Part shown: positions 3,601-51,100 of the stretch, piece after piece
How the letters are laid out: each line of letters opens with the position of its first letter
Numbering within the stretch: the first letter of the stretch is position 1
Source of the DNA: Torpedo marmorata
Taxonomy: Eukaryota
Length of the DNA: 64,000 nt
Assembly (NCBI GenBank): GCA_977017645.1
Contig: OZ360253.1
Location: forward strand, 34,534,001-34,598,000
Direction of reading: 5' to 3'
Translations under genes and position numbers: made by a program
Notes under the pieces: generated by a model
Told to the model about the DNA's origin: nothing
Database searches by the model: none
The model's input: only the letters and a program-made list of their open reading frames with translations

Positions 3601-6600
3601 AACTGCACACAGCGTAAACATGTAAACAAATAAAGAAACGTAAATAACTGACTGTGCAATACAGAGAGGAAAAAAATCAATAAAGTGCACAAGTAAGAGT
3701 CCTTAAAAGAGTCCCTGATTGAGTTGTTGTTGAGGAGTCTGATGGTGGAGGGGTAGCAGCTGTTCCTGAACCTGGTGGTGTGAGTCTTGTGGCACCTATA
3801 CCTCTTTCCTGATGGTAGCAGTGAGAACAGAGCGTGTGCTGGGTGGTGTGGATCCTTGATGATTGCTGCTGCTCTTCGACGGCAGCGTTCCCTGTAGATG
3901 TTCTCGATGGTGGGGAGGGTTTTGGCTGTGATGTCCTGGGCTGTGTCCACTACCTTTTGCAGGGCTTTACACTCAGGAGTATTGGTGTCCCCATACCAGA
4001 TCATGATGCAGCCGGTCAGCACACTTTTCACCACACCTCTGTAGAAATTTGCCAGGGTTTCCGATGTCATACCAAACCTCCGCAAACTCCTGAGGAAGTA
4101 GAGGCGCTGACGTGCTTTCTTCATGATGCCATTAGTGTGTTGGGTCCAGGAAAGATCCTCCGAGATAGTGGCTCCCAAGAACTTACATTTGCTCACCTTC
4201 TCCACCTCTGATCCCCCAATGATCACTGCATCGTACACCTCTGGTTTTCCCTTCCCGAAGTCAACAATCAGCTCCTTAGTTTTGGTGACATTGAGTGCAA
4301 GGTTGTTGTTGGTGCACCATTCAGCCAGGTTTTCAATCTCCCTCCTGTATGCTGACTTATCACTCCTTAGTTCCAGGCACCCTCGCTGAGAGAAACATCT
4401 TCTCAGCACTCATTCTGTCGATCCCCTCATAATATTTATGCTTAATTTAAATCACATCTAATTCTTTTATTATCCAAAGAGTAACAGTGAAAGCTGCTCA
4501 TCCATTTTTCATAAGTAAATGTCTTCACCCCAGGAATAAACCTGGTGAACCTTCCCTCCACTGCCTGCAATGTGGATCCTTCCTTAAAAATGTCAGTCCA
4601 GATTGGTGCTAAAGACTCTGGATTGGTGATTGGATCCATGACTGCACATACACGGCTTGGCACCCTGTGAGCTGTAGGTCCTTCAGAATGTCCTATGTGT
4701 CACTGGACTGAGTCCTCAATGATTTGAACTGGGTGGGATCTCAAGTTGTGCAATTGCTGGTGACTAATCTGCAACAGTTCTGTGTGTTGTGATTGCTTCC
4801 TCCTGTCATTAAGATGAGTTCCTTGGTGCTACCTCCAGGGAATGTTCCCTAATGCTGTCTTCTCCAATGGCGCAGGTCTTTGCTGACATTTTTGACCCTG
4901 TGATTGTGGAAAGGCACAATGGATATGATCCGAGGACCATGAAACACCCAACGGACTTGGATGCAAGTAAAGTGAGTGTAATTTTCAGTCTGACGGTCTT
5001 ACATTGAGGGCTTCTCCTTTGATTTCATTGACTTCCTCCAAGACAATTGGAAGCAAACTCGCTATCTCACTTTTCTGATTCTGAAGGGTCTTCCGAAACA
5101 TTGCCTGTTTCTCAATATTTCTCACCAGCTCTGTGGAACCACATGGGCTTTTCATCGCACCGTAGTACATGTGGCAACAAAAAATTGAAAACTTGGGGTC
5201 GATTCTATGCGTCACTTCTGGAGATACATGGAAGAGCCTTTGTTTCAGTCACACACAAGCCTCCTCCACCACTTCTTTCTCTTCTGTACTGATCAATGCC
5301 ACTTCCTGCTCTCCTGTACAAAACTCAAACCTTTGCCCCTGATATCTATTCTGCCCTTAGGTTTACATGGTCTATTTCTGCTCTACCTCAACATCTCTAT
5401 TTCCTTCTTTCCAAATCCAGATGCTCCCACGGATACCTTGATGCCAGCCTTCCAGTGATTAACCAGTCTCTCCTCCATTTCCATCACCTGCTCTCATCCC
5501 CATCTTGTCCCACCCAGAGCTAATCCATCCCACCTGCCTACACATACTCCATAACCTGCTCCCTTCAATGGGATTCCACCATCAGATACATCTTCCTCTC
5601 CTCTCCCCTTTCAGAATTCCACAGGGACCAGATTGTCCAAGTCTCACTGGGCAACTTTTCCATCTCCACCAATCACTCTCCTTCTCTTGACATTTTCCCA
5701 TGCAGCCATAATGCTCCTGTTCTCTGTCTTTCTAACACTGACAAAACAAAGTCCAGCACAAGCTCAAGATAAAGTATTTCATCTTCCAACCAGGTGGTTT
5801 GCAGCCCTTAGGACACAATCAACATTGCAATCGGCCATTTCAGATCATCAGCCATCTCAGCGTAGGTCTAAACTGGCTAGCTCAGAATCAGAATCAGAAA
5901 TTATTGTCATGAATAAGTCACAAAATTCTTGTTTTGTGGCAGCATCACAGTGCAAACATTTATACAAACCACCGTACAAAAATAAATAAAAATAGTGCAC
6001 AAAAAGTCCAAGTAAGGCAGTGTCTTTGGTTCATTGTTCATTCAGGAATCTGATGGCAGCGGGAAAGAATCTGCCCTTGTGCCGCTAAGTGCTCGTCTTC
6101 AGGCTCCTGTACCTTTTTCCCAATGGTAGTAGAGTGAAGAGGGCATGGCCTGGGTGGTGGGGGTCCTTGAGGATAGAGGCTGCCTTTTTTAAGACACCAC
6201 CTCTTGTAGATGTCCTCGATGGAGTGAAGTCACAGGCCGAGTTAACAACCCTCTGGAGTTTTCTCTTGTCCTGAGTGTTGGCACCTCCGTACCAGACAGT
6301 GATGCAACCAGTCAAAATGCTCTCCACGGTACACCTATAGAAGTTCTCGAGAGTCTTCGGAGACATACTGAATCTCCTCAAACACCTCACAAAGTATAGC
6401 CGCTTGTGAGCCTTCTTTGTGATTGCATCAACATGGAGGCTCCAGGACAGATCCTCAGAGATGTTGACACCCAGGAATTTGAAGTTCTGCTAAAAACTGT
6501 TGGAAGGTCTCACCCCGAAACATTGACCATCCCTTTTGCCTCCACAGATGCTGCCTGACCCACTAAGTTCCTCCAGCAGCTCGATTTCTGCTCCACATTC

Positions 6601-18600: not shown

Positions 18601-19739
18601 TGGCTGAGATGAAGAGAAGCAAAGGGGGGAAACCTTTGGAATTCTCTAATTAGAGGGCTGTAGAAGTTAATTATTGAGTTAATTCAAGATAGAGATTGAT
18701 AAATTGATAAATATTAAGGAAATCGGGAAAAGCAGATGAATGCAGGGATGTGGAAGAGCAGACACAAGAACAGGTTAGATGGGTATTCCTGGTGATTCCC
18801 TTCTCCGACGTCAGGGCCCATTCCCATGCCGAGCCTTCTGGGGAATCAGGCCCTCCCGTGGTGACGGACAGCCTCGACGGGGCCCGACAACATCAGACAC
18901 GTTCTCTGTGTTTCAGGACCCCCGCTTCGCGAAGATCCTGGAGAACTTGCGTCTGCAGAAGCGCGGCACGGGGGGAGTGGACACCGCGGCCGTGGGCGGC
19001 ATCTACGACATCTCCAACCTGGACCGGCTAGGCAAGTCCGAGGTCAGTGCCCACCCGTACCACGGTCCTGGGGGTGGGGGGGGGATGGGGGCAGGGAGGG
19101 AGGGGAGAAAGGAAAGGGGATGGAGAGGAGGAGGGGGGCGACAGGGAGAGGGGGAGGAGCGACGGGGAGAGGGGCAATGGGGAGGGAGGGGGCGATGGGA
19201 GGAGGGGCGACGGGGAGGGAGCGATGGGGAGGGAGCAATGGGGAGAGGGGTGACGGGGAGGGGGAGGGGTGACGGGAAGGGGAAGAAGGATGTTGAAGAT
19301 GGAGGAAATGGAGGGGGGAAGGGGAAGGGGAAAGGCAGTTAAGTGCGAGGAGGTTTAGAGAGGGGAATGTGGAGGAGGGATGGAGGAGGATGGGAATGGG
19401 GAAGAATCCAGGTAAAGATTGAGGAAGGGGGAGAAGGCGAAGGGATGAGAGGGGGGGTTGGACGGTAGAGGAGGGACTGGGTTGTGGGAGGGAGCGGTAA
19501 TGGGGGGGATGGGCAGGCTTCCTTGGGCAAGTGTCGGGCTGAGATGCGTTCCCACCCAATGTCCGGGATGCCCCTAGGATTTGTCATTGGGCCCAACGCC
19601 GAAAGGTTTGTTGCCTCCGCAGGTGGAGCTGGTTCAGCTGGTGATTGACGGGGTCAATTACCTGACCGATTGCGAGAAGCGGCTGCAGAGAGGACAGGAC
19701 ATCAAGATCCCTCCGCCTCTGAGCAACAGCAGACGCTGA
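511..19739 (+). CDS. CKMT1: Creatine kinase U-type, mitochondrial; complete gene span, 9 coding exons, 1254 nt / 417 aa
   Basis: Exons 511-659, 2843-3041, 4876-4971, 6747-6968, 8314-8399, 9380-9503, 16707-16841, 18917-19042 and 19623-19739 all have GT-AG boundaries and join in frame. Motifs present: [22 protein letters not shown]-type rather than S-type features (GAGSLAAG in the transit peptide, [18 protein letters not shown]), and linkage to STRC. Confidence 0.95.
1848..2505. repeat. TG-rich simple repeat with N-run (2095-2505)
   Basis: (TG)n-rich flanks and a GTG island inside the Ns. Confidence 0.7.
2843..3041 (+). CDS. CKMT1: CKMT1 coding exon 2
   Basis: [13 protein letters not shown]...[26 protein letters not shown]; AG/GT boundaries; 199 nt. 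Confidence 0.96.
3493..4365 (-). mobile_element. 5'-truncated Rex1/Babar-like LINE (RT C-terminus plus 3' tail)
   Basis: ORF 3573-4409 contains [20 protein letters not shown] and [11 protein letters not shown]; AATAAA followed by a TCTGA-type tail. Confidence 0.85.
4876..4971 (+). CDS. CKMT1: CKMT1 coding exon 3
   Basis: [32 protein letters not shown]; donor gtgagt; 96 nt. Confidence 0.96.
5882..6487 (-). mobile_element. Rex1/Babar-like LINE 3' fragment
   Basis: [20 protein letters not shown]; (TTCTGA)n tail; same family as 34212-35190. Confidence 0.85.
6747..6968 (+). CDS. CKMT1: CKMT1 coding exon 4
   Basis: [24 protein letters not shown]...EQQQLID; donor gtaaga; 222 nt. Confidence 0.96.
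7043..7350. repeat. 63-bp minisatellite, about 5 copies
   Basis: Unit CACTCTCCCAGGGGAGGGGACACAGGGGTTAGACAGAGTACATATCCCTCTACACCATCCTGT. Confidence 0.9.
7349..7507. mobile_element. hAT/Charlie-type palindromic MITE
   Basis: TIRs CAGTGGTTCTCAA...TTGAGAACCACTG; whole element is a hairpin; degenerate 8-bp flanks ctctacac / ctcaatac. Confidence 0.8.
7896..8215. repeat. 26-bp minisatellite (some 32-bp variants)
   Basis: Unit GGGAGAGTGTGACAGGGTCCCGGTCT. Confidence 0.9.
8314..8399 (+). CDS. CKMT1: CKMT1 coding exon 5
   Basis: [29 protein letters not shown]; donor gtaagt; 86 nt. Confidence 0.96.
8792..9230. mobile_element. Tc1-mariner/Tigger-like MITE with an internal 28-bp tandem repeat (8879-8990)
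   Basis: About 23-bp TIRs AAGTAAAAGTTCAAAAATCCGGA / TCCGGATTTTAGGACTTTTACTC flanked by TA. Confidence 0.75.
9380..9503 (+). CDS. CKMT1: CKMT1 coding exon 6
   Basis: [41 protein letters not shown]; 124 nt. Confidence 0.96.
10292..10696. mobile_element. Tigger-like MITE carrying a nested TA-flanked element (10458-10635)
   Basis: Outer TIRs CTGTAAAA..CCCCGGTATCCGG / CCGGATACCAGGGGTTTTACTG; inner TA|CCGT...ACGG|TA. Confidence 0.65.
10949..11203 (+). mobile_element. tRNA-derived V-SINE (HE1-like)
   Basis: A/B-box-like head, V-domain GGAGTTTG..TTCTCCC.GTGTCTGCGTGGGTTTCCTCCGGG, CR1-like 3' end and TAAATT tail. Confidence 0.85.
13200..13561 (+). mobile_element. LINE 3' end (Rex1-like), ...GACAATAAACTTGACTTGA tail
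   Basis: Near-identical copies at 14981-15329 (+) and 57378-57624 (-). Confidence 0.8.
14171..14630 (+). mobile_element. CR1-clade (HER1-like) LINE 3' fragment
   Basis: [29 protein letters not shown]. Confidence 0.85.
14981..15329 (+). mobile_element. LINE 3' end (Rex1-like), second copy
   Basis: [22 protein letters not shown]; same tail as the copy at 13200. Confidence 0.8.
15347..15717. mobile_element. Composite hAT MITE (two palindromic units plus spacer) with 8-bp TSD GTGTACAG
   Basis: GTGTACAG at 15339-15346 and 15718-15725. Confidence 0.85.
15833..16046. mobile_element. hAT-like MITE
   Basis: Imperfect TIRs CAGCCATTCTCAA...TTGCGAATGGCTG; no clear TSD. Confidence 0.6.
16364..16612 (+). 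mobile_element. V-SINE (HE1-like)
   Basis: Same consensus. Confidence 0.85.
16707..16841 (+). CDS. CKMT1: CKMT1 coding exon 7
   Basis: [45 protein letters not shown] (phosphagen kinase active-site Cys); 135 nt. Confidence 0.96.
17100..17340 (+). mobile_element. V-SINE (HE1-like), diverged
   Basis: Same consensus. Confidence 0.8.
17462..17728. mobile_element. Probable PIF/Harbinger-like MITE
   Basis: TIRs CCCCTTTTACAC / GTATAAAAGGGG with internal TGTGTGAA repeats. Confidence 0.5.
18152..18395 (+). mobile_element. V-SINE (HE1-like)
   Basis: Same consensus. Confidence 0.85.
18917..19042 (+). CDS. CKMT1: CKMT1 coding exon 8
   Basis: [42 protein letters not shown]; 126 nt. Confidence 0.96.
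19070..19510. repeat. GA/G-rich low-complexity tract in CKMT1 intron 8
   Basis: Purine-rich GGGAGG runs. Confidence 0.8.
19623..19739 (+). CDS. CKMT1: CKMT1 coding exon 9 (terminal)
   Basis: [41 protein letters not shown]. Confidence 0.95.
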
Positions 19740-19839: not shown

Positions 19840-19845
19840 AATAAA
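19840..19845 (+). terminator. CKMT1 polyadenylation signal AATAAA
   Basis: First AATAAA, about 100 nt after the stop codon. Confidence 0.6.
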
Positions 19846-21800: not shown

Positions 21801-22844
21801 CCCCAGCACATGCACACGCAGTGTTGTGACTCACCACGTCACCTGAGCACAGGTCCAGGCCACGACAGTGGATGGGGAAGGGATCGGTGACTTTAAACAT
21901 TCGACGTGTCCACAGCCCCTAAAATCCTCACACCACATCCCCACTCAGCGCAGTCAAGAGGGAAAATCATCCAGAGTCGAGGACGCTTAATGCAAGAGAA
22001 CAGATTCATTGTAATCACAACTTCACCCCAACTAACGGGGAGGGTGAGCTGTCCCACGTCCAGCCCCGCTGGCAACCACATCATCTGCACCCAGTCATCA
22101 CCAAGGGTGTTGAGCACGTCGGGACCATTGAGAAGGGAGGGGGGTTGAGGTTCAGTTCTACTCCACCGGCCTGTGGTGTCACCCCACACCCGGTGAACCT
22201 TTCACACCCATTCCCTGTTCCGTCTGTTCGTGGACGAAAACTCTTGCCGCACCGACACTGTCCATCCCTGGGTCTCCACGTCTACCACAGGGGGTGACCG
22301 CCAGTTACTGGGGAAGCAGAGGGCAGAGTCAGCAGAGCAGGGGGGGTGGGTGTCAACCAATCTTGCAGGGATTGTCCGGTTCGCTGACCATTCCGAAGGA
22401 GTCACAGAATGTTCTCCGGGGTCAGCGTTTTGTGTCAGTGCCCAGCGACCATTGCCAGGATCACCGACCACTGCCAGGGTCCCTCACTGTCGCCGGGGTC
22501 ACTGACCTGTCACACAGCCGGTCCGTTCTTGGTGCCAGGCCCGTGGGCCGTGTTACTGGGTCGTCCCCCACCAGCGGCAGCTCCTCGCTGGAAGGGAGAG
22601 GAGGAACAGAGAGGGGGTCTGCGGAGCGGCGAGCCCCCAAGGTAGGTTGAGGATGCCGACCTCTGCAGCTCTGCAAGCAGACAGGAGAAAGACTGCATCA
22701 GCGGCTGTTGTCCAGTGATTCACCACATCCAACAAGCAGCTGGTGAAACACTCAGTCATCGCACCTTTGGCCCAGTCTGCAGCGAGGCAGCGGAGACAAT
22801 CTAAAAAAACCCAGCTCACTGCGGGAGGGGCAGTGCGGAGGGGT

Positions 22845-24826
22845 GTTGCAGGGGAGTGCCGCAATTTTGGAGGGGAGTTGCGTGGGAGTGGTGCACTGTT
22901 GGAGGGTAGTTGCATGGGAGTGGTGCACTGTTGGAGGGGAGTTGCATGGGAGTGGTGCACTGTTGGAGGGGTGTTGCATGGGAGGGGTGCACTGTTGTGG
23001 AGTTGCATGGGAGTGACACACTGTTGGAGGGTAGATGCATGGGAGTGGTGCACTGTTGGAGGATAGTTGCATGGGAGTGGTGCACTGTTGGAGGGTAGTT
23101 GCATGGGAGTGATGCACTGTTGTGGAGTTGCATGGGAGTGACGCACTGTTGGAGGGGTGTTGCATGGGAGTGGTGCACTGTTGGAGGGGAGTTGCGTGGG
23201 AGTGGTGCACTGTTGGAGGGTAGATGCATGGGAGTGGTGCACTGTTGGAGGGGAGTTGCGTGGGAGTGGTGCACTGTTGGAGGGGAGTTGCATTGGAGTG
23301 GTGCACTGTTGGAGGGTAGATGCATGGGAGTGGTGCACTGTTGGAGGGGAGTTGCATGGGAGTGGTGCACTGTTGGAGGGTAGATGCATGGGAGTGGTGC
23401 ACTGTTGGAGGGGAGTTGCGTGGGAGTGGTGCACTGTTGGAGGGGAGTTGCATGGGAGTGGTGCACTGTTGGAGGGTAGATGCATGGGAGTGGTGCACTG
23501 TTGGAGGGGAGTTGCATGGGAGTGGTGCACTGTTGGAGGGTAGATGCATGGGAGTGGTGCACTGTTGGAGGGTAGTTGCATGGGAGTGGTGCACTGTTGG
23601 AGGGGAGTTGCGTGGGAGTGGTGCACTGTTGGAGGGGAGTTGCATGGGAGTGGTGCACTGTTGGAGGGTAGATGCATGGGAGTGGTGCACTGTTGGAGGG
23701 GAGTTGCATGGGAGTGGTGCACTGTTGGAGGGTAGATGCATGGGAGTGGTGCACTGTTGGAGGGTAGTTGCATGGGAGTGATGCACTGTTGTGGAGTTGC
23801 ATGGGAGTGGTGCACTGTTGGAGGGTAGTTGCATGGGAGTGATGCACTGTTGTGGAGTTGCATGGGAGTGGTGCACTGTTGGAGGGGAGTTGCATGGGAG
23901 TGATGCACTGTTGGAGGGGTGTTGCATGGGAGTGACACAATGTTGGAGGGGAGTTGCATGGGAGGGGTGCACTGTTGGAGGGGAGTTGCATGGGAGTGAT
24001 GCACTGTTGTGGAGTTGCATGGGAGTGGTGCACTGTTGGAGGGGTGTTGCATGGGAGTGGTGCACTGTTGGAGGGGAGTTGCATGGGAGTGATGCACTGT
24101 TGTGGAGTTGCATGGGAGTGGTGCACTGTTGGAGGGGAGTTGCATGGGAGTGATGCACTGTTGGAGGGTAGTTGCATGGGAGTGATGCACTGTTGTGGAG
24201 TTGCATGGGAGTGGTGCACTGTTGGAGGGTTGTTGCATGGGAGTGATGCACTGTTGGAGGGTAGTTTCATGGGAGTGATGCACTGTTGTGGAGTTGCATG
24301 GGAGCGGTGCACTGTTGGAGGGTAGTTGCATGGGAGTGATGCACTGTTGTGGAGTTGCATGGGAGTGGTGCACTGTTGGAGGGGAGTTGCATGGGAGTGA
24401 TGCACTGTTGGAGGGGTGTTGCATGGGAGTGACACAATGTTGGAGGGGAGTTGCATGGGAGGGGTGCACTGTTGGAGGGGAGTTGCATGGGAGTGATGCG
24501 CTGTTGTGGAGTTGCATGGGAGTGGTGCACTGTTGTGGAGTTGCATGGGAGTGGCGCACTGTTGGAGGGGAGTTGCATGGGAGTGGTGTACTGTTGGAGG
24601 GGAGTTGCATGGGAGTGACACAATGTTGGAGGGGAGTTGCATGGGAGTGATGCACTGTTGGAGGGGAGTTGCATGGGAGTGACTCAATGTTGGAGGGGAG
24701 TTGCATGGGAGTGATGCACTGTTGGAGGGGAGTTGCATGGGAGTGACGCACTGTTGGAGGGGAGTTACATGGGAGTGACGCACTGTTGGAGGGGTGTTGC
24801 ATGGGAGGGGTGCACTGTTGGAGGGA
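22845..24826. repeat. 32-bp (29-bp variant) minisatellite, about 2 kb
   Basis: Unit GTTGCATGGGAGTGGTGCACTGTTGGAGGGGA. Confidence 0.95.
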
Positions 24827-25379
24827 TTTGCCATGTGAGTGAAACGTTGGTTACCCTTTACTTCCTCTGGACGCTGCGTGACCTGCTGAGTTTCTCCAGC
24901 ACGTTTGTGCACTGCACTCGACTCCACATCCTGCAGACTTTCTTGCATCACCCCTTATAAAAATTTTAACTATTTGCTCTGCATCAGCCACACTCCCTGG
25001 ACCTCACTGCCTCCTCATGGGATTTCCCCCAGTTCTAATCCTCTTTCGAATTCCTTCATCAAAATGCAGTCACCACCATCACTGCCCACGTCGTCCCAGA
25101 GATTGTCTCCACAACTTAGTACATCACCCAGCCCCAAAACCTGCAAGCTGTTCGTCCACTTTGTTGGCGAGCCACAGCAAAACGTACAAGAAACAAGTCA
25201 TACAAACACCCTCTCACCATCACTCATAGAATTGGGATCTCACGGAAAGAGGTCCATCAGCTGTGGCTCGTGTGAGGTCAAAAATAGCATTTGATGAGGG
25301 GAAATGTCTAACAATTATTGGGACATTTCAGAATACAGCAAAGGACCCAGGGGTTGATAAGCAAAGGGGAGACCGGATA

Positions 25380-26500
25380 CAAGAATGCTGTAGTTTAAAA
25401 CACACAGAAATGTTGGAGGAACTCAGCCGGTCTTGCAGCGTCCATAGGAGGGAAAGATACAGTATATTACTGACGTTTCGGGCCTGAGCCTTTCCCCAAG
25501 GTGTAAGCAAAAAGCATGCAGGCGTCTTAATTAAAGACAAGAGAGAAAGGAGGAAGAATGAGAGGGGGAGGAGTCCAGACCAACAAAAGGTGTTACTTGG
25601 ATATGATAAGAGGAGAGGTGAGAATTGATTTTGGCTCTGTGAAAGGAGACAGAGGGAAAAGGGAAGAGAGAGAGAGATAGACAGAGCTGGGGAAAGGAAA
25701 CAGGGGGGGAGAAGAATTGGCGGGGGGGGAGGTTTAACGGAAACCGGAGAAGTCAATGTTAATGCCATCCGGTTGGAGGGTGCCCAGACGGAAGATGAGG
25801 TGTTGTTCCTCCAATTTGTGGGTGGTCTCTGTCTGGCAGTGCATGAGACCATGGACAGACATGTCAGCAAGGGAATGGGACAGGGAATTGAAATGGGTGG
25901 CCACTGGGAGATCCACGCTACTGCGGTGGACAGAGCCGAGGTGCTCAACGGAGCGATCTCCCAGTCTGTGCCCAGACTCTCTGATGTAGAGGAGACCACA
26001 ACGGGAGCACCGGATGTAGTAGATGACCCTCACAGAATCTCAAGTGACGTGTTGCTTCACTTGGAAGGACTGTTTGGGGCCCGAAAATAGTGGTGAGGGT
26101 GGACGTGTGGGTGCAAGTGGAGCATCTCCTACGGTCACAGGGGTAGGTGCCAGAAGGACGATTAGTGGGGACGGAGGAGTGGACGAGGGAGTCACAGAGC
26201 CAGCGGTCCCTGTGGAAGACGGAGAGGGGAATATGTGTCTAGTGGTGGGATCACGTAGTAGGTGGCAGAAATGGCAGAGGAGGATCTGTTGTATGCGGAG
26301 GCTGGTGGAGTGGTAGGTGAGGTCAAGAGGAATCCTGTCCTTGTTGCGTGTGGGTGCGGAGGGGGCCAGGGCAGATGTGCGGGTAGTGGAGGATTTGCGG
26401 GTGAGGGCTGAGTTGATGGTGGTAGAGGGAAAGCCACGTTGTTTGAAGGAGGAGAACATCTCTGATGATCTGGCATGGAAGACCTCATTCTGGGAGCAGA
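25380..26500 (-). mobile_element. Penelope-like element fragment (GIY-YIG endonuclease plus terminal repeat)
   Basis: VIYYIRCSRCGLLYI.E...RLGDR..EH, VATHFN and RLGTLQPDGIN; frameshifted. Confidence 0.85.
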
Positions 26501-27273
26501 ATGGTCTGGTGAGAGTTAATGGTCTGGAGAGAGTGCACGGAAAATTCAGGGACATCTGATACATGAGATGGCGGGCTTGTTGCATTTAGAGAGAGAACCT
26601 CTTTGGGCCTACACTCTCTCAAATCTGGCCTGATTTTATTGAAAAGTGTCACCACGGTCACAGTCCCAATATAAGGAATCGGCCATTCAGGACTGAGACA
26701 AATGAGAAATGTCTTCAACCAGAGTGGGGTGAATCCTTTAACTCTCTGTGAGAGCCCAGTCACCAAGGATATTCAAGGTAGAGATTGCAAGCAATTAAGG
26801 AATCATGTGGTTAGGGTGAGAATGTGGTGCTGAAGTAAATGATCGGCCACGAGGGCTTCTTCCTGCTTCTTTCCTCTCTTCTCGTCAGTGATGATCCTGT
26901 CTAGAGTAACCCTCCTTCCCTGTGGACCTGCAAACCATTCCATGTCAATTCTATCCCCTTACCTTTTGGAAACTGAGTAGAGCCCCGACAGACTCGGAGT
27001 AAACATTCTCCCCACATGTACCTTTGGCTTATAACATCAAAGCTGACACCACATCCCTGAACTATCCACTGAAGGGAAGAGCTTCCTTCCATTTATCGTG
27101 ATATTGACCACCTCCATCCCATCTCCTCTCAGAGTTTTACAGCACGGAAACAGGCCCTTCAGCCCAACTTGTCCATGCCGACCCAGTTATCTAACCAAGC
27201 TAGTCCCAATTGCTTGCGTTTGGCTCACAACCTTGTTTGTTCTGGGCAGTAGCCTGATTTTGCCCATCTAACC

Positions 27274-28659
27274 TCATAGCTGAAATGTTTCATCTCCTCC
27301 CTGCTCCTGTTCCTGAGGTTGTGCACACAAGCTCGCACTGAACTGCTGGCCCCACTGCGCTCCCAGGTCTGCTGTGTGATGAATGGGATCATCTGTCTGA
27401 GACTGAACCTTCCCTGCTCTCCACAAAGAACAGTGCACAGGGGGGAGAGTACCTTGGGTGAAGAGGAAGGCAGGTGTATTGGCTTCAACGTTGGTTTCAG
27501 TGTTGGTTCTCCTCGCGTTTTGAGTACTGTGCTGGCCAGCTGGTGCTTGGATCTCCTCCGGGACCTGCTGGGCAGACACTCCGAACCACCAGCCCAACCA
27601 ACCCTTGGCACGGCGCCTGAACTGCCGGTTCAGCAGAGCGTAGAGGACTGGATCCAGGACGCAGTTGGTGAAGGTCAGCCAGGTGACGAGGAAGTCCAAC
27701 GTCTTGACGGAGGCGCTTTCGGGGGGAGATCGGGGGCGAAGGTTGTTGATGAAGTAGGGTAGCCAGGTGAGGAGGAAGGTGGCTACCACGCCAAGGATGG
27801 TCTTGGCAGTCCTGGATTCCATAGCCATGTCCGAGGCGCTGCTCGCACTCAGGTTGAACGTGGAGTTGGAGGATACGAGGCTGGCCCCTCTGCGCGGAAG
27901 GCTGCCCTGCAATAGTCTGAGGGACTTGGACTCCTTGAGGACTACCTTGCCCTCGTGTCCAGAGGCCACGCTGCTGGTGAACCTCTGGGCCCTGGCAGAC
28001 AGATGCTCCCGTGTCACTCGGTATATCAAGTAATACGATGTGGTGACTGTCACCAACGACATCAGGTACACCCAGATGAAAAGGTAGATGCTGTACGCCA
28101 GACTGGAACCTCCGTCTGTCCAACTGTAGTCACACAAACACTTGGAAGGAGAGAACCTGTAAAGGCCAACACCAAACAGCGGTGGCATCCCACAGCACAG
28201 GCCAGCCCACCACAGGAAGACTATCGTCCTCTTTGCTTTCTCTCTCGTTACGGTGAGCGTGAATGGCCTGGTAATGATGTAATACCTGTCCACCGCGATC
28301 CCAGCCACACACAGGATGGAGACCAGCCTCAAGGAGAACGTCAGGAAGCCCGAGATCTGGCAAAAGGTGGCGCCCAGAGGCCACGTCCGGATCACTATCA
28401 CCGTGATGACGAAAGGGAGGCCCAGCACGACCACCAGCAGGTCGGCCAACGCCAGCGACGCCACGAACATGTTGGTGATGCTCCTCAGAGGCCGGGACTT
28501 GGAGACCAGCAGCAGCACCATGACGTTGAGAGGTAGCCCCAGGGCAAAGATGAGCAGGTAGAGGAGCACCTGGGTCGCAGTCTCTGCCAGCGAGGGCTCC
28601 GGGGGGGCAGTGCTGTTAGCCTCCAGGAACCCCGAGACCGAGGCAGGAAACCCATCCAT
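27274..28659 (-). CDS. Orphan class A (rhodopsin-like) GPCR, single coding exon, 461 aa
   Basis: Seven hydrophobic segments with N1.50, LALAD (TM2), WPLG-C, DRY, W4.50/PPLFG, an ECL2 Cys, FLLTWLPY (TM6), DPVLY plus helix 8 (LNRQFRR) and an N-terminal NST glycosylation site. ATG at 28659 in aacATGg context; in-frame upstream TAG at 28723-28725. Confidence 0.93.
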   Translation of the reverse strand: MDGFPASVSGFLEANSTAPPEPSLAETATQVLLYLLIFALGLPLNVMVLLLVSKSRPLRSITNMFVASLALADLLVVVLGLPFVITVIVIRTWPLGATFCQISGFLTFSLRLVSILCVAGIAVDRYYIITRPFTLTVTREKAKRTIVFLWWAGLCCGMPPLFGVGLYRFSPSKCLCDYSWTDGGSSLAYSIYLFIWVYLMSLVTVTTSYYLIYRVTREHLSARAQRFTSSVASGHEGKVVLKESKSLRLLQGSLPRRGASLVSSNSTFNLSASSASDMAMESRTAKTILGVVATFLLTWLPYFINNLRPRSPPESASVKTLDFLVTWLTFTNCVLDPVLYALLNRQFRRRAKGWLGWWFGVSAQQVPEEIQAPAGQHSTQNARRTNTETNVEANTPAFLFTQGTLPPVHCSLWRAGKVQSQTDDPIHHTADLGAQWGQQFSASLCAQPQEQEQGGDETFQL

Positions 28660-29184
28660 GTTACCAGGACAGTGCAAGCAGCCAGCCTTCCACTCAGCTT
28701 TGGGATGCCCATGGGAGCCGGCCTACGGGAGGGGGGGGCTCAGGAGATCCGTGCCGGCAGGACTTGCTCCACGAAATTTAACCCTTTACTGTCTGACAGT
28801 TCCTCGAGGCCAGGGGTCTCGCGCTTAGCTTCAGGCATTGGTGGGGACACCATCGTCCCCCTGGGCTCCAGGCAGACGATTCAGGGAAAGATCTGAGAGG
28901 AGAAATGAAATACAGATCACTGGAGATTTCTGAGGGAAGAGTGGCCCCATCAGCTATGGAAAGATGGTGTGAAGGAATCCAAGATGGTCAAAGTCATTTT
29001 GAGAGATATTCTAATCAATACAATGGGACAGATGGGAACCCACCACTCCTCCCATTCCACATATTATTCCCCACCCCCAACCCCCCCAAAAATGCATGAA
29101 CATTTCAAACATCTCCTCAGGCCAGAAACCTAAAATCAAACCGTAAGAAAATTTGTAAAGGGGGAAGAAATGCTCCCCCCTCTC

Positions 29185-29840
29185 CATAGAACATTGCAGC
29201 ACAGAGGCCCTTCGGCCCTTCTAGTCTGTGCCAAACTATTATTCTGCCTAATCCCACTGACCTCCATCCCCCTCCCATCCATGTACCTGTCCAAATTCTT
29301 CTTAAATGTTAAAATTGAGCCTGCATTCACCACTTCAGATGGCAGCTCGTTCCACACTCCCGCCACTCTCTGTGTGAAGAAGTTCCCCCTAAACCTTTCC
29401 TCTTTCACCCTTAACCCACGTCCTCTGGTTTGTATCTCACCTACCTTCAATGGAAAAAGCCTCCCTACATTCACTCTGTCTAGACCCCTCATAATTTTAA
29501 ATACCTCTATCAAATCTCCCCTCATTCTTCTACGCTCCAGGGAATAAAGTCCGAACCTGTTTAACCTTTCCCTGTAACTCAGTTCCTGAAGTCCGTGAAC
29601 ATCCCAGTAAATCTTCTCTGCACTCTTTCAATCTTATTGATATCTTTCCTGTAGTTAGGTGACCAAAACTGCACACAACACTCCAAATTTGGCCTCAACC
29701 ATGTCTTATACAACTTTACCATAACATCCCAACTCCTCTACTCAGTAATTTGATATATGAAGGCCAATATGCTAAAAGATCTCTTTACAACCCTATCCAT
29801 CTGTGACGCCACTTTCAGGGAATAATGTATCTGTATTCTC
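29185..29840 (-). mobile_element. CR1-clade LINE 3' fragment
   Basis: MRGDLIEVFKIMRGLD...FFTQRV..WNELP. Confidence 0.85.
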
Positions 29841-30584
29841 AGCCGCACAAAGCTCAGTCTGGGGCATCATGTGGTTGAAAGTGAAGTAAGAATTCACTAC
29901 CTCAACTGCTTTTATTCTCGGTTGTGTCGGGCAGGTCAAAGCTTAAACAAGAGCCGGGCCCTAAACTAAGGGTGGGGAGGCAGAATGTTCTCCTGTAGCC
30001 CACCCGAGCAGTTTTGGTTATGTTGGCATCGATAAATGCCCCAGGATTTGACGGTGGGACCAGATCTGAGATGTCGATTGGGAATGGCAGATCCGGGCCC
30101 GTCAGACTGAATTTCTTCACTCAGAGGGTGGTAGGAGGGTGGAACGAGCTTCCGGCTGAAGTGGTAGATGCAGTTCAATTTTAATGTTTAAGGAAAAGTT
30201 GGATAGGTATATGGACGAGAGAGGTGTGGAGGGTTATGGGCAGGGTGCGGGTCAGTGGGACCAGGTGGGAGAAGGTGTTCGGCATGGACTAGAAGGGCCG
30301 AACTGGCCTGTTTCTGTGCTGTAATTGTTATATAGTTATATATGGTTATAATATCCTGACAGCTCCTGGTCGATCTGGTCATTCTGTTTCTCTGGACCCT
30401 TCACCCAGTTTTGTTGAAGTAGGTTTACATCGGGCGGCACAACATTGTGGGCCAAAGGGCCTGTACTGTTCTGTAATGCACGTCCAGTGGTGGACGCCTG
30501 CACCAGTGTGGGGAGTGAGTCACCAGCCTGAACGCTATCAATAATGACGAGGGATTTGAGCACATGACTTGCCATCTACAAGGA

Positions 30585-30884: not shown

Positions 30885-31349
30885 CAATAGTTCTCAACCT
30901 TTTTTTCCCACTCACATACCACCTTAAGTAATCCCTTACTAACCACAGAGCACCTATTACTAACCACAGAGCACCTATTACTAACCACAGAGCACCTATT
31001 ACTAACCACAGAGCACCTATTACTATCCACAGAGCACCTATTACTATCCACAGAGCACCTATTACTAACCACAGAGCACCTATTACTATCCACAGAGCAC
31101 CTATTACTAACCACAGAGCACCTATTACTAACCACAGAGCACCTATTACTATCCACAGAGCACCTATTACTAACCACAGAGCACCTATTACTAACCACAG
31201 AGCACCTATTACTATCCACAGAGCACCTATTACTATCCACAGAGCACCTATTACTATCCACAGAGCACCTATGCCAGAGGTGCTCTGTGGTTAGTAAGGG
31301 ATTACTTAAGGATGTATGTGAGTGTGAAAAAAAATCTTAAGAACCACTG
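30885..31349. mobile_element. hAT MITE with an internal 16 x 21-bp tandem expansion
   Basis: Same family as 7349; TSD tcctaagg / tccttagg. Confidence 0.85.
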
Positions 31350-34211: not shown

Positions 34212-35190
34212 TCAGAATCAGAATCAGAATCAGAATTTATTGTCATGAACAAGTCATGAAATTCGGTGCTTTGCGGCAGCATCATAGTGCAATTAACATT
34301 CATATTAACCATTCTAACGACATTACTATATAAAATTATAAACAATAGTGCACTAGTGTCTTTGGTTCATTGATTGTTCAGGAATCTGATGGCAGCGGGG
34401 AAGAAGCTGACCTTGTGCCGTTGAGTGCTCGTCTTTAGGCTCCTGTACCTTTTCCCCGATGGAAGCAGCGTGAAGAGGGCATGGCCTGGGTGGTGGGGGT
34501 CCTTGAGGATAGAGGCTGCTTTATTAAGACATCGCCTCATGTAGATGTCCTCGATGGAGTGAAGTTTGGTGCCCGTGATGTCACAAGCCGAGGTAACAAC
34601 CTTCTGGAGTTTGCACTTGTCCTGGGAGTTGGCACCACCATACCAGGCAGTGATGCAACCAGCTAGAATGCTCTCCACGGTACACCTGTAGAAGTTCACA
34701 AGAGTCTTTGGCGACATACCGAATCTCCGCAATCGCCTCACAAAGTATAGCCGCTGACGAGCCTTCTTTGTGATTGCATCCACGTGGATGCTCCAGGACA
34801 GATCCTCGGAGATGTTGACACCCAGGAATTTGAAGTTCTTGACCCTCTCCACGACTGAGCCCTCGATGAGGACTGGGTTGTGTTCCCCTGACTTCCTCCT
34901 GAAGTCCACAATCATCTCCTTGGTTTTACTGACGTTGAGCTCGAGGTTGTTGTCATTACACCATTCAATGAGCTGATCTATCTCCCTCCTGTACGCTTCC
35001 TCATTGCCGTTTGTGATTCTGCCGACAACTGTGGTGTCATCGGCAAACTTGTATATGGCATTGGAATTGTGCCTGGCCTCACAGTCATGAGTGTATAGCG
35101 AGTAGAGCAGTGGGCTAAGCACACATCCTTGGGGTGCGCCTGTGTTGATAATCAGTGAGGAGGAGACGTTGTTTCCAATTCGTACTGACC
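34212..35190 (-). mobile_element. Rex1/Babar-like LINE 3' fragment with an open RT segment
   Basis: PQG..LSPLLYSLYTHDC and KFADD RT motifs; (TTCTGA)n tail. Confidence 0.9.
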
Positions 35191-35616
35191 AGGGTAGTTG
35201 GCTGTTGGCAGGATGATAGACCCAGACAAGTTCTTGCTCCTTAATCCATAAGCAACTGCCCTTCTAAAATTCTCATCCTGTGTTTTAAATCCACCAGCTC
35301 CTCCCTCCCCATCTCTGTAACCTCTTGTTGAAATGTACAAAATTCTTAGGGAGGGGTTGGTTTCCCTAGACTGTGGGGTCTTCCCACATCCAGGCCCTGG
35401 GTAAAACCCACTGGTGGGACTGATCATCACACTGAAATGTCACCTGCTTCACTTCAGGCACTGCATGATCTGCTCAGCATTTCCAGCTTCGGATTATTTC
35501 ACATTTTCTTGACCGGTGTAATTATGTTTCCTGACGGTCAAATACACGTTGTCCCTTCCCATCCAGGTCTATGGAGAAACAATTCAAATACTCCCACACT
35601 TGCAGCCACAATACAC

Positions 35617-36024: not shown

Positions 36025-36030
36025 TTTATT
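36025..36030 (-). terminator. STRC polyadenylation signal AATAAA
   Basis: TTTATT on the + strand, about 60 nt after the TAG. Confidence 0.6.
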
Positions 36031-36087: not shown

Positions 36088-36167
36088 CTAACCAGCCCCA
36101 AGACTGTAGGTCACTGAGAGGCCCAGGTAGAGGACAAAGAGTTTGAACGAAGCAGCAGTATTCTTGC
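36088..36167 (-). CDS. STRC: STRC terminal exon (GKNTAASFKLFVLYLGLSVTYSLGAG-stop), GPI-signal-like tail
   Basis: Acceptor cttgcag; the phase-1 join gives QRGKNTA (human QQGRSTA); hydrophobic tail; AATAAA about 60 nt downstream. Confidence 0.8.
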
Positions 36168-45100: not shown

Positions 45101-48100
45101 GTCTCTCACTCAGATATCGCGAGTTCAAGTCCCACTCCAGAGACTGAATGCAAAATCCCTCCTTCCACCCCAGGGAAGTTTATTACCTCCTTTAAAATCA
45201 GAGAGAATAAAGTTCATGCTCATTTAGGAGCAGCAATGCATTTTCACACAAAGATCAGAACTGTCACCATGAATGACCTGCATATTTTGTAAATCCAGGT
45301 CCATGGGATGGGTGGGAGGGTTACGGGAGGCGGAGGGTGGGGTTACGGGAGGCGGAGGGTGGGGTTACGGGAGGCGGAGGGGGGTTACGGGAGGCGGAGG
45401 GTGGGGTTACGGGAGGAGGAGGGGGGGTTACGGGAGGCGGAGGGGGGTTACGGGAGGCGGAAGGGGGGTTACGGGAGGCGGAGGGGGGGTTACGGGAGGC
45501 GGGGGCGGGGGTTACGGGAGGCGGGGGCGGGGGTTACGGGAGGCGGGGGCGGGGGTTACGGGAGGCGGGGGCGGGGGTTACGGGAGGCGGGGGTGGGGGT
45601 GGGGGTTACGGGAGGAGGAGTGGGGTTACGGGAGGAGGGGGGGTTACGGGAGGAGGAGGGGGGGTTACGGGAGGAGGGGGGGTTACGGGAGGAGGAGGGT
45701 GGGTTACGGGAGGAGGAGGGGGGGTTACGGGAGGAGGAGGGGGGGTTACGGGAGGAGGAGGGGGGGTTACGGGAGGAGGAGGGGGGGTTACGGGAGGAGG
45801 AGGGGGGTTACGGGAGAAGGAGGGGGGTTACGGGAGGAGGAGGGGGGTTACGGGAGGAGGAGGGGGGTTACGGGAGGAGGGGGGTTACGGGAGGAGGAGG
45901 GGGGGTTACGGGAAGAGGGGGGGTTACGGGAGGAGGGGGGGTTACGGGAGGAGGGGGGGTTACGGGAGGAGGGGGGGTTACGGGAGGAGGGGGGTTACGG
46001 GAGGAGGGGGGGTTACGGGAGGAGGGGGGGTTACGGGAGGAGGGGGGTTACGGGAGGAGGGGGGTTACGGGAGGAGGGGGGTTACGGGAGGAGGGGGGGT
46101 TATGGGAGGAGGGGGGGTTACGGGAGGAGGGGGGGGTTACGGGAGGAGGGGGGGTTACGGGAGGAGGGGGGGTTACGGGAGGAGGGGGGGTTACGGGAGG
46201 AGGAGGGTGGGGTTACGGGAGGAGGAGGGGGGTTATGGGAGGAGGAGGGTGGGGTTACGGGAGGAGGAGGGGGGGTTACGGGAGGAGGAGGGGGGTTACG
46301 GGAGGAGGAGGGGGGGTTACGGGAGGAGGAGGTAGAAAGATATTGGATTCAGTCAGATCTGGTGGGGGTTTTGTCAGTGAGAACCATATCAGATAATGGG
46401 ATGTGAAAATGATTCAAAAGAACATGGTGTGCCATCTTCCAGAACCTTCCGATTGCTGTCCCCCATGGTGGGGAGTTGACCCAGTAACGCAGAAGAAGCT
46501 TTTCACTGCATCTTGTAACTGTTGGGGTTCAATAGGAACAGACCGGCCGACAATGCCCGTCAATCAAACAGCTTCCAACGTCTCCAGCAGTCCGGAAGGG
46601 AAGGTTTCAGTGGCATACCCATGGGGAAGGTGGACGAGCATTACCTGTTTCATGCTCCATTCCTCCATCTCCCCCAGGAAGGACAGAATGCCCAGGTCCA
46701 GCAGATCGAGGGACTGGAGATCCCGCTCGCTGAGCTGTGAGGCCGCTCTGCCCAACTGCAGCACCTGCCAGCGCGTCATTGACATCACGGGGCCATACAG
46801 CTGGTAACAGACACGATCACGATCATTCAAAGGTTCACCACCTGCCTTTGCCCTCCCCCTCCTGCCCTCAAGACCCTTAAGAATTGCTTTACAATTAGAT
46901 CACAGCCGATCTATGCTCCAACTCCATCTACCAGACATGATAGACTGGTCACCCAGGGTTAAGTGATTTTGGACCAACCCTGACCCTAACCAATCCAGTA
47001 AAGTGGACAATTCACACCATGGCAGTTGTGGAATTTCAATTTCTTTTACTGATCCAAAATTAAGAAACAGCTAATCGCATTGATAACTATCAATCTATCA
47101 GATTGTTATAAAGACCTGTGGTTCAGGGGAGGGAGTCTGCTATCCTGGTGTCGTCTGGCCAGTGAGGAACTCCAAACATATCAGGGAATGTTCTCTGAAG
47201 AGGGCCAGCAAGCCCTCTCTGCAGGGGTCATTAGGGATGGGCAACACAAACTGGTCTCACCAACAACGTCATGATTGTAGTTTGGGATCAAGGAGGGAAA
47301 GGTCAGAAGGCATGTGTTGGACCTGGTTCGAGGAATATGAAGCGGGGAAAATCCAGAGGAATATTGGAACTCACGCGTTGGAGTTTCCCATCCTTTACAT
47401 CTTAAAGAATGGAAAGAAATTGCAGCACTAACTGTGGTGGAGAACGTGGTGGTGCGGTTAGCGCAACACTGTTACAGCGCCAGAGGCCCAGGTTCAAATC
47501 CGGCACTGTGTGTAAGGAGTTTGTACGTTCTCCCCATGTCTGCGTGGGTTTTCTCCGGGTGCTCCGGTTTCCTCCCACCGTTCAAAATGTACGGGGTTTG
47601 TAGGTTAATTGGATGGCACGGGCTCGTGGGCCGAAAGGGCCTTGTTACCGTGCTGTATGTCTAAATTAAATTTTAAAAATAAAGTGGAACTGTGGATCAC
47701 ACCAGCTGACCGGTGTCATTGCAGAGACGAAAGCAGATACGTGCCGATGTGTGGACCAGCCTGGACCTCAGAATGTAATGAAAACAATCCCTTGAGAAAC
47801 GCTGGACCGTTAAGCCAGACTTGTGGTCCTCTCCGTCCCACGTGTGAGTGGAATTACAGTTGGCCTTCACATGGGATGTGATGGTTCAGAGACACTTGCT
47901 GAGAAAGACTTTTAAATGTTTTTTAAATTTCAATTTTAAATTTAGACATACAGCACGGTAACAGGCCATTTCGGCCCACGAGCCCATGCCTCCCAATTTA
48001 CACCCAATTAACCTACAAACCCCGGTATGTTTCAAACAGTGGGAGGAAACTGGAGCCCCCGGGGAAAACCCACGCAGACACGGGGAGAACGTACAAACTC

Positions 48101-51100
48101 CTTACAGACAGCACGGGATTCAAACCCTGGACCTGATCGCTGGTGCTGTAAAGGTGTTGCGCTAACCGCTACGCCAACCGTGCTGCCCCTTTTCTCCCTG
48201 AAGCCGAGTATATTCTTACAGAAGGTACACAAAATCATGAGGGGCACAGAAAAGGCAAATGGACACAGTGTAGCAGAGTCTAAAACGTGAGCAAATAGAC
48301 TTAAAGTGAAAGCAGATAGACTTTAAAGTGATCTGAGGGGCAATGTTTCCCACAGAGGGTGGTGTGTATACGGACAAGATCCCAGGGACAATTACAACAT
48401 TTAACAGACATTTAGACAGGGTCATGGATAGGAAAGGTTCAGAAGGATATAGGCCAAAAACAGGTAAATGAGTCTAGCTTAGGTAGACAGATTGGTCAGT
48501 GTCGATAAATTGGGCCGATGGTCCTATGATGTGCAACTCTATGATTGACTTTCCTTTAGCTATGTTTACACCTTAAACTGTCCTCGTTTCAGAATCAGGT
48601 TTATTGTCATGAACATGTGTCATGCAATTTGTTGTTTGGCGGCAGCGGTATTGTGCAGAACAAGGTGCAAAATTACAATAAATTACAATTCCGTGAATAC
48701 AAGATTTAAAGAAATAAATAACTAGTGCAAAAAAGAGAAAACGTAAGGTAGCGTCTGCAGGTTCATTGTCCGTTCTGAAATCTGATGGCAGCAGGGAAGA
48801 AGCTGTCCTTGTGCCGCTGAGTTCTCGTCTTCAGGCTCCTGTACCTCTTTCCTGATGGTAGCAGTGAGAAGAGGGTATGGCCTGGGTGGTGGGGGTCCTT
48901 GAGGATAGAGGCTGCTTTTTGAGGTACTGCCTCACCGCCAGGATGAACAGAACCACATTCTCTCTCCCGAACAGCCCCACGGTAGTAGAGGCCACTCAGC
49001 TCCTCTATTCAATACAATCATGGCTGATCTATCCCAAGCCTCAAATCCTCTCTCATGCCCGTCCCAATTGCCCTCAATCCACGACCTTTCAACATTTCCC
49101 TGTTTTCTCCCCCTTTAAAAACTCGCAACTAATCTGACCTCCATAACCCTTTAGGGGAGAGAACTCCCCAAGGAAACACCCTCAAACTGTCAGGGGTATT
49201 CCCTTCAATCTACCCGTCCCTCGTTCTCCCTCCTTCCCAGTTCTGATGAAGGGGTTTTGACCACCCCTACAGATGGAAACGCCCCCATCAAAACCCGCTC
49301 TGATCCCAGGTCTCCAATCTCTGACAACAGTTCCACTGATAGTGAGGAGACCCTCTCTCACCCTGACTCCTGCTTAACTCGCCTCACTCCCTGCCTCACC
49401 CTCACACCCCTTTTCCTCCACTCTATAACCTCCTGACTCACCATACACCCCCTCCACACCCGACCTCGCTCCCACAACCCAAACTCACCCTGGCTCTTGC
49501 TTATCCCAACTCACACCCCTGACCCACCACCACGACAGCCCACTCTCTCCCCGTCCCCCCCGCCCCATTCACCCCACCCCAGCACCCTGACCGCCACTGG
49601 GAAGAAGATTGCCCTTGGACCTCTGGCCACGTGGGCACCACCCCACTGCCGTGCCGCTGAGACTCACGTGCTTGGCCTTGGTCACCAGGACTTTCCGCTG
49701 CTCGACGGACAGGTCCGGGTCGCCGGTGAGAACCTCCAGACAGGCGGCAAATTCCATGTCTTCCATGCTGCCAAGCTGGCTGCTACTCCAGGCAGCAGGG
49801 AAGGTGGCCTTGATGTCAATGCAGCGCGGGCTGCCGCCTGGAAGGAAGCAGAGGACACGTCGGGCGCACGTGCGGATTCCCACGGCACAGGTCAAGGGCG
49901 GCAAATTCAGGGAACAACAGCCCCCTCACCCACCCTCCACCCCGAGCTGGGAACACGTCACCAGTCTCTCATCATCACTGACTCTGAGCCTAGAAGCTCC
50001 CTCCCCAACTCCACTGGACAGAGGGAATCTCGAGCAAAGGTCCTGACCCGAACTTTTGACTGTCCATCGTTTTCCAGAGATGCCGCCCTGTGCGAGGGTA
50101 CAGGCGCCCGTTCCCCGTGTGGGGGTACAGGCTCTCCCCCACCCTGTTCCCCGTGTGGGGGTACAGGCTCCCGTTCCCTGTGTGGGGGTACAGGCTCTCC
50201 CCCACCCTGTTCCCCGTGTGGGGGTACAGACGCTCTCCCCCACCCCGTTCCCCATGTGAGGGTACAGACGCTCTCCCCCACCCCGTTCCCCATGTGGGGG
50301 TACAGACGCTCTCCCCCACCCCGTTCCCCATGTGGGGGTACAGACGCTCTCCCCCACCCCGTTCCCCATGTGAGGGTACAGACGCTCTCCCCCACCCCGT
50401 TCCCCATGTGGGGGTACAGACGCTCTCCCCACCCCGTTCCCCATGTGGGGGTACAGGCTCTCCCCCACCCCGTTGCCCACGTGGGGGTACAGACGCTCTC
50501 CCCACCCCGTTCCCCGTATGGGGGTACAGACGCTCTCCCCCACCCCGTTCCCCATGTGAGGGTACAGACGCTCTCCCCCACCCCGTTCCCCATGTGGGGG
50601 TACAGACGCTCTCCCCACCCCGTTCCCCATGTGGGGGTACAGGCTCTCCCCCACCCCATTGCCCACGTGGGGGTACAGACGCTCTCCCCACCCCGTTCCC
50701 CATGTGGGGGTACAGACGCTCTCCCCCACCCCGTTCCCTATGTGAGGGTACAGACGCTCTCCCCCACCCCGTTCCCCATGTGGGGGTACAGACGCTCTCC
50801 CCACCCCGTTCCCCATGTGGGGGTACAGGCTCTCCCCCACCCCGTTGCCCACGTGGGGGTACAGACGCTCTCCCCACCCCGTTCCCCGTGTGGGGGTACA
50901 GACGCTCTCCCCCACCCCGTTGCCCACGTGGGGGTACAGACGCTCCCCCCCACCCCGTTGCCCACGTGGGGGTACAGACGCTCTCGCCCACCCCGTTCCC
51001 CATGTGGGGGTACAGACGCTCTCCCCACCCCGTTCCCCGTGTGGGGGTACAGGCTCTCCCCACCCCGTTGCCCACGTGGGGGTACAGACGCTCTCCCCAC

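Follow-up and report, generated by a model that had tools for sequence, protein, structure and literature searches.

We asked what gene is encoded by a long open reading frame on the minus strand of a Torpedo marmorata contig, between a creatine kinase gene and a second multi-exon gene, whether the frame makes up all of that gene, and where the gene stands among known receptors. The window is the whole stretch of DNA analysed, 64,000 nucleotides in length.

A class A receptor gene with two coding exons

The minus strand from 28659 to 27274 holds an uninterrupted ATG ORF of 461 codons. By comparison, 200 base shuffles of positions 26001-30000 yielded no ATG ORF longer than 212 aa. The ORF matches PF00001 (7tm_1) over residues 45-340 (E=2.8e-51; 174.9 bits against a cut-off of 30.5), and its start lies in a strong context, with A at -3 and G at +4. 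The original prediction had described an intact 461-aa seven-TM protein with a strong Kozak context and a set of quoted class A motifs. The start context is as it had been described, the motifs are present, and the seven helices are borne out by the Pfam match and by an AlphaFold2 model built on an 80-row alignment, which has seven TM helices and helix 8 (mean pLDDT 82.6). The 461 codons are indeed stop-free, but as a complete protein the ORF does not stand, as residues 403-461 are intron read-through. The ORF is a real class A GPCR, but it is not the whole gene.

These last 59 codons were unmatched by the tails of orthologues. By tblastn the orthologue tail was instead found at 22671-22522 (63% to Hemitrygon residues 395-443, E=1.7e-11), and the GT donor after 27453 and the AG acceptor before 22670 are phase-compatible. 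The gene model is as follows.

27453..28659, minus strand: receptor coding exon 1, 1207 nt, residues 1-402 plus one base, with a phase-1 GT donor at its end
22671..27452, minus strand: receptor intron, 4782 nt, GT...AG
22837..24841, no strand: 32-nt tandem repeat in about 64 copies, inside the receptor intron, a source of spurious long ORFs
22510..22670, minus strand: receptor coding exon 2, 161 nt including the stop, conserved distal C-tail

Exon 1 encodes the N-terminus, the seven TM helices, helix 8 and the proximal C-tail; exon 2 lies 4.8 kb from it, and the spliced receptor has 455 aa. The first 179 nt of the intron (27452-27274) are the read-through tail that had been taken as coding, and GC3, 0.77 in exon 1, drops to 0.48 across this tail. 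When the two candidate tails were scored against 14 orthologues, for 12 of them no more than 3 of 300 shuffles scored as high as the exon-2 tail, the exceptions being Hemiscyllium (12/300) and the chimaera (270/300). The score of the read-through tail was reached by 12/300 shuffles for one orthologue and by at least 86/300 for the other 13. RefSeq isoforms X1-X3 of Hypanus and Mobula split at the same exon 1-exon 2 junction. Judged by these alignments, the receptor gene is a two-exon gene whose intron position is common to the Torpedo window, Hypanus and Mobula. Because RefSeq isoforms usually rest on RNA-seq, X1-X3 also provide indirect evidence of expression. A C-terminal frameshift was considered and rejected: the other frames gave no match, and the second exon accounts for the tail.

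Further elements were seen on either side of the coding sequence. An out-of-frame ATG ORF of 75 codons (28485..28712, minus strand) starts 53 nt before the receptor start and overlaps it; it may dampen translation of the receptor. Just before this upstream ATG lies a pyrimidine-rich AG (near 28723), a possible splice acceptor of the 5' UTR. On the other side, the minus strand from the exon-2 stop to the creatine kinase stop (22510-19740), which includes two N gaps, contains no canonical polyA hexamer, only two weak variants. A donor-like GT closely follows the exon-2 stop, suggesting that the receptor's 3' UTR may be spliced.

Genes on either side of the receptor

The receptor had been placed between CKMT1 and STRC. 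The last coding exons of its two neighbours are as follows.

19623..19739, plus strand: last coding exon of the CKMT1-like creatine kinase, stop at 19737-19739, polyA signal at 19840
36088..36167, minus strand: last coding exon of the neighbour lying upstream on the receptor's strand (putative STRC), with a hydrophobic C-terminus and AATAAA at 36030

To the left, on the plus strand, lies a gene for a mitochondrial creatine kinase. Four of its six candidate exons match Pfam, and its best PDB match is of the U-type, with the S-type about 2 bits lower. It is convergent with the receptor gene, their stops lying about 2.8 kb apart. The right neighbour is a minus-strand multi-exon gene, which we take to be STRC. 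Its stop (36090-36088) is 7429 bases from the receptor ATG, in agreement with the earlier placement of the receptor on the same strand, 7.4 kb downstream. None of nine candidate minus-strand segments was identified as STRC by Pfam, with no stereocilin/mesothelin family at E up to 10, and neither a PDB search of the neighbour's exons nor an ESM Atlas search of a putative exon supported that identity. The creatine kinase side of the placement is therefore backed by Pfam and PDB, while the STRC side is without support from Pfam, PDB or the Atlas. In human, no receptor gene is known to lie between CKMT1B and STRC. These two genes and CATSPER2 occur together there in a four-gene duplicated block at 15q15.3 (PMC10668944, available portion).

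Orthologues in cartilaginous fishes, amphioxus and tunicates

A word search with the whole protein gave 16 matches among 8000 scored candidates. Twelve of the matching clusters are sharks, rays and skates at 57-70% identity; they span 20 named species, and a Callorhinchus orthologue comes in addition. Their labels disagree (GPR161-like, No18, SSTR2-like, octopamine-like, tyramine-like, 5-HT1E-like and LPA-receptor-like), amounting to at least eight unrelated automatic names across RefSeq and UniRef.

A profile search covered 1.84 billion 50% cluster representatives, and of the 161 proteins reaching an E of 1e-30 or lower, the best 150 were considered. Ranked after the sharks were Callorhinchus (417 bits), then the amphioxus Branchiostoma (334); the tunicates Styela, Phallusia, Clavelina and Ciona scored 273-210 bits and a further protein, P0041, 247. 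The background lay at 190 bits or below, beneath all chimaera, amphioxus and tunicate matches, and names were found for 13 of the 20 clusters looked up. A second word search, restricted to TM3-TM5, scored all 166 of its candidates and matched 14, all chondrichthyan, with the chimaera at 76%.

No named bony-vertebrate or cyclostome member appeared in the profile search (best 150 of 161) or the TM3-TM5 word search. The latter finds proteins sharing at least 27 words and missed the amphioxus and tunicate members, which share 3-5; in simulations, relatives with 65-70% identity over this region retained a median of 15-22. An orthologue that had diverged further would be expected to sit in a 50% cluster of its own and to rank in the profile search. 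Both whole-protein word searches scored the top 8000 only and missed the chimaera and amphioxus, and we do not count them as evidence of absence. The searches for absence have a blind spot for proteins whose overall identity barely exceeds 50% and that share few words, as well as for genes unannotated in genomes: absence from bony vertebrates here means absence from predicted-protein databases, where 50% clusters can hide members. Within that scope, the receptor has very probably been lost in bony vertebrates, as it appears. The original suggestion of an ancient gnathostome receptor lost in mammals is supported but understated, with the lineage at least chordate-old and the apparent loss spanning bony vertebrates generally.

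Some individual models deserve mention. P0013, from Rhinoraja longicauda, parts from the other orthologues in TM6 and stops at 320 aa, as if after a frameshift, which would mean an assembly error or a pseudogene. Callorhinchus milii has two models (P0037 and P0221), of which the RefSeq one is full length, whereas the UniRef one departs from the family in ICL3 and is missing TM6-7. P0041, placed by the tree, and its 90% cluster mate P0193 are ENA members of the clade, and have Glu3.33 beside Arg3.36.

A clade separate from the GPR161 and GPR61 groups

A FastTree of 161 rows, from which five multi-domain rows were dropped, recovered a 23-row receptor clade with support 100. All but the window protein and P0041 are named chondrichthyan, amphioxus or tunicate. 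We then took 47 of 63 rows into IQ-TREE under a mixture model, leaving out nine long or fast-evolving branches, six rows that were redundant or would have lengthened the computation, and P0162. A single 12-row clade (100/99) united the chondrichthyans with amphioxus, tunicates and P0041, and within it the window protein grouped with stingray and skate (100/99), which marks it as a batoid sequence. The sister of the 12-row clade was a five-row group including a protein of the soft coral Xenia (97/98), in which one of the five rows is named and long-branch effects are possible. The GPR161 group (rodent and Saccoglossus), a GPR101/161-like invertebrate group and a GPR61-like group were separate from the receptor clade. 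By these trees, the receptor lineage is at least as old as the chordates.

AU tests rejected a grouping of the chondrichthyan rows with rodent GPR161 (p about 3e-49), of the whole clade with the GPR161 group (p=0.008) and of the clade with the GPR61 group of invertebrate GPR61-like rows (p=0.012). A grouping with the GPR161 and GPR101-like groups together gave a marginal p=0.035, with GPR101 represented through invertebrate proxies only. The groupings were set after earlier trees had been seen, which weakens the marginal p values. The GPR101 and GPR61/62 groups, neighbouring branches that are represented by invertebrate proteins with best PDB matches to GPR161/GPR101 or GPR61, have 26-29% TM identity to the receptor. 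These identities and the rejected groupings (GPR161, GPR61) agree with the earlier view of an orphan that is no clear orthologue of GPR61/62/135/101/161. GPR135, GPR45/63, GPR176, GPR26/78, GPR21/52, GPR198, GPR211 and vertebrate GPR101/61/62 were outside the trees as named references.

Residue signatures and predicted fold

We surveyed residues in the 80-row alignment, which comprises 27 clade rows and 53 outside rows. The window protein has N1.50, D2.50, C3.25, DRY, W4.50, Y5.58, P6.50 and (N/D)PxxY, and the TM cores are invariant among orthologues. Position 3.36 is Arg in 25/27 clade rows and Gln in the other two, and neither residue occurs there in any of the 53 outside rows. Pro5.50, part of the PIF connector and frequent though not universal in class A, is absent from 26/27 clade rows (Ser201 in the window protein) vs 1/53 outside. 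Neither Asp3.32, the amine counter-ion present in 7/7 aminergic-type rows, nor Lys7.43, the site of retinal attachment, is found in any of the 27 clade rows (Thr107 and Phe330 in the window protein), which counts against both an amine receptor and an opsin. An acidic residue occupies 6.30 in 25/27 clade rows vs 0/6 of the GPR161 group, and in 9/9 rows of the GPR101/161-like invertebrate group. Position 7.35 is acidic in 27/27 clade rows. In ECL2, Asp or Glu follows the Cys in 18/18 chondrichthyan rows, and the Trp is also present in 38/53 outside rows.

The Xenia protein (XP_046864882.1, 'GPR161-like') and the four more sister proteins have, in the rows printed, the same Trp-x-x-Gly-Gly end of ECL2 as the receptor clade. 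They differ from it in keeping Pro5.50, in having Thr or Leu at 3.36 and Leu at 6.48, and in lacking Asp3.49.

The AlphaFold2 model forms an ECL2 beta-hairpin (strands 167-170 and 175-178). The ESM Atlas returned generic 7tm_1 clusters only, tied at 0.95. Fold searches do not separate class A subfamilies; in Z score, opsins, MT1 and GPR84 come within 1 unit of GPR161.

Separately, position 6.44 (the PIF Phe) is Cys, His or Tyr in 12/18 chondrichthyan rows and Phe in batoids and amphioxus. Together with the changes at 5.50, this leaves the PIF connector degenerate at two of its three positions in most sharks.

A putative carboxylate pocket and its alternatives

It is very likely that the locus encodes a functional two-exon class A GPCR of an unnamed, chordate-old orthology group, which cartilaginous fishes, amphioxus and tunicates retain and which bony vertebrates have apparently lost. 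What follows on ligand class, gating, G-protein type and tissue we infer, starting from the gene structure, clade, database distribution, residues and predicted fold reported above. Our tentative reading is that the receptor may be gated by a small acidic (carboxylate) metabolite or lipid, because the Arg3.36 of the clade matches the carboxylate anchor of HCAR2 (GPR109A), where it is likewise residue 111. HCAR2 belongs to a different branch of class A, and the likeness would be convergent; HCAR2 is absent among the best 60 PDB sequence matches listed and among the listed fold matches, although its absence from the latter excludes nothing. In HCAR2, Arg3.36 anchors the carboxylates of agonists (PMC10682194, available portion). 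By analogy, a ligand carboxylate would pair with the putatively buried Arg at 3.36 of TM3 (Arg111) under the ECL2 beta-hairpin lid, the pairing would shift the Tyr6.51/Trp6.48 switch, and this shift would break the Arg3.50-Glu6.30 lock so that a G protein could bind.

Several findings count against an acidic ligand. The acidic residue adjacent to the ECL2 Cys and the acidic 7.35 could neutralise Arg3.36; HCAR2 is not a close relative, and 2/27 clade rows have Gln3.36; and the ECL2 Trp, Tyr6.51 and Trp6.48 of GPR161 self-activation are kept. An acidic 6.30 is common, as the GPR101/161-like invertebrate group makes plain, and so is weak evidence of an off state.

We think it unlikely, though worth stating, that the full history is one of a pre-chordate lineage with a cnidarian sister, which early in the chordates acquired, independently, an Arg3.36 pocket like that of HCAR and survives among vertebrates as a carboxylate sensor in cartilaginous fishes only. 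Elasmobranchs depend heavily on ketone bodies, which makes beta-hydroxybutyrate or a fatty acid a candidate ligand. If the carboxylate-sensor reading is true, loss at the base of the bony vertebrates would amount to a dropped signalling pathway.

The main rival, which we consider rather unlikely, is constitutive activity of the GPR161/GPR101 kind, in which the ECL2 beta-hairpin would act as an in-built agonist and the receptor would signal tonically through Gs and cAMP, possibly in cilia. GPR161, a ciliary, constitutively Gs-coupled orphan (PDB 8kh4, 8smv), is the receptor's nearest solved relative: it is the top sequence match (E=8e-31), the top Foldseek match and tied top by VIA-align (Z 32.8, rmsd 1.8 over 262). 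The two share the C3.25-ECL2 cysteine pair, the ECL2 Trp, Trp6.48, Tyr6.51 and the predicted ECL2 beta-hairpin. In our alignment, the counterparts of receptor Cys176, Trp180, Trp299 and Tyr302 are the ECL2 Cys, Trp182, Trp283 and Tyr286 of GPR161, residues covered in the available text of PMC12444479. In GPR161 the Trp at the end of the hairpin packs on Tyr6.51 above Trp6.48. Self-activation of GPR161 and GPR101 depends on the ECL2 Cys and Trp together with Tyr6.51 and Trp6.48 (PMC12444479, PMC10516915, both in part). However, the ECL2 Trp is unspecific, given its frequency outside the clade; opsins, MT1 and GPR84 tie with GPR161 in fold; and the AU tests reject a grouping with GPR161. The receptor differs from GPR161 in having Arg3.36, Asp2.50, Glu6.30 and Ser5.50, with 28% TM identity to the rodent protein; sharks and amphioxus retain both Asp2.50 and Glu6.30, where members of the GPR161 group carry Asn2.50 and a non-acidic residue at 6.30. 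The conserved C-tail of GPR161 bears a PKA anchor. The receptor's own tail has no similarity to that of rodent GPR161, aligning no better than shuffles (score 41, reached by 6/300).

A peptide, an amine or a neutral small molecule seems improbable as the ligand. Tryptamine elicits a response from a placozoan receptor placed near GPR21/52/61/101/161 (bioRxiv 10.1101/2025.04.18.649542, available portion), aminergic, somatostatin and galanin receptors come after GPR161 among the PDB matches, and the RefSeq names of orthologues include octopamine-like and SSTR2-like. Those names disagree between orthologues, however, the clade stands apart from aminergic-type rows in the tree, and it lacks Asp3.32 and has a cationic Arg3.36 that would repel an amine.

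The original prediction raised the possibility of a sensory or ciliary role. Co-regulation of the receptor with STRC in sensory cells, whether hair cells or electroreceptors, fits either mechanism but is, on balance, quite improbable. The idea draws on linkage, namely the same strand and the 7429 bases to the neighbour's stop. Yet the neighbour has its own polyA signal at 36030 and was not confirmed as STRC by our tools, and the main text of a catshark sensory-organ paper (PMC11979771) has no occurrence of 'stereocilin' or 'strc'.

It is highly improbable that the receptor is a diverged orthologue of a vertebrate receptor outside our trees, such as GPR135, GPR45/63, GPR176, GPR26/78, GPR21/52, vertebrate GPR101/61/62 or the fish and amphibian GPR198/GPR211 of PMC6504862. 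These are indeed absent as named references from all trees, and bony-vertebrate clades without human orthologues do occur near GPR101/161/176 and GPR21/52 (PMC6504862, available portion). But any genuine orthologue from bony vertebrates ought to rank above amphioxus and tunicates in the profile search, no named one did, and 21/23 rows of the FastTree clade carry chondrichthyan, amphioxus or tunicate names. Finally, a recent lineage-specific insertion, which the original prediction had left as its other option, or a retrocopy or pseudogene is scarcely credible: one exon does hold most of the coding sequence and skate P0013 does break off in TM6, but the gene is present in all chondrichthyan groups sampled, with intact full-length orthologues across batoids, sharks and chimaera, an intron position conserved in Hypanus and Mobula, invariant TM cores and orthologues in invertebrate chordates.

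Relation to described receptors

The proteins themselves are already in RefSeq and UniRef under automatic names; what appears new, on sequence grounds, is their recognition as a single ancient orphan lineage within a known receptor class. In the literature searched, which covered sources outside subscription journals, six orthologue accessions had no mention, and searches by topic found no description of the clade; the available portions of PMC2246102 and PMC10244343 contained no relevant passage. In the part of PMC8455134 available, 208 gene families are reported as retained in chondrichthyans and lost in bony vertebrates, and the receptor clade may sit unnamed among them; the whale shark accession was absent from the 13 of its 24 supplementary files searched. 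With 208 such families already reported there, and with receptor function a prediction, the surprise is limited.

The lineage matters in other ways. GPCR surveys built on bony-vertebrate genomes cannot see it, and the word 'shark' has no occurrence in the available text of PMC6504862. Scattered automatic names make one lineage look like several different receptors. Uniting the shark, chimaera, amphioxus and tunicate genes in one orthology group places an additional branch beside GPR161/101/61, and, returning to the carboxylate reading, Arg3.36 supplies a pocket hypothesis that is testable in catshark, amphioxus and Ciona.

Repeats and other elements in the window

Besides the array in the receptor intron, tandem or low-complexity arrays occupy 30936-31272, 45273-46406 and 49926-52460, with a 21-nt unit x16 among their repeats, and these too give rise to spurious long ORFs. 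LINE-type reverse transcriptase fragments lie on the minus strand at 34370-35263 (PF00078, E=2e-15) and 3576-4409, one of them between the receptor and the STRC-like gene, and similar-looking fragments are found at 6088-6489 and 29139-29737. Two near-identical open stretches of 97 codons on the plus strand (52954-53244 and 58420-58710) have no Pfam match and are probably transposon copies.
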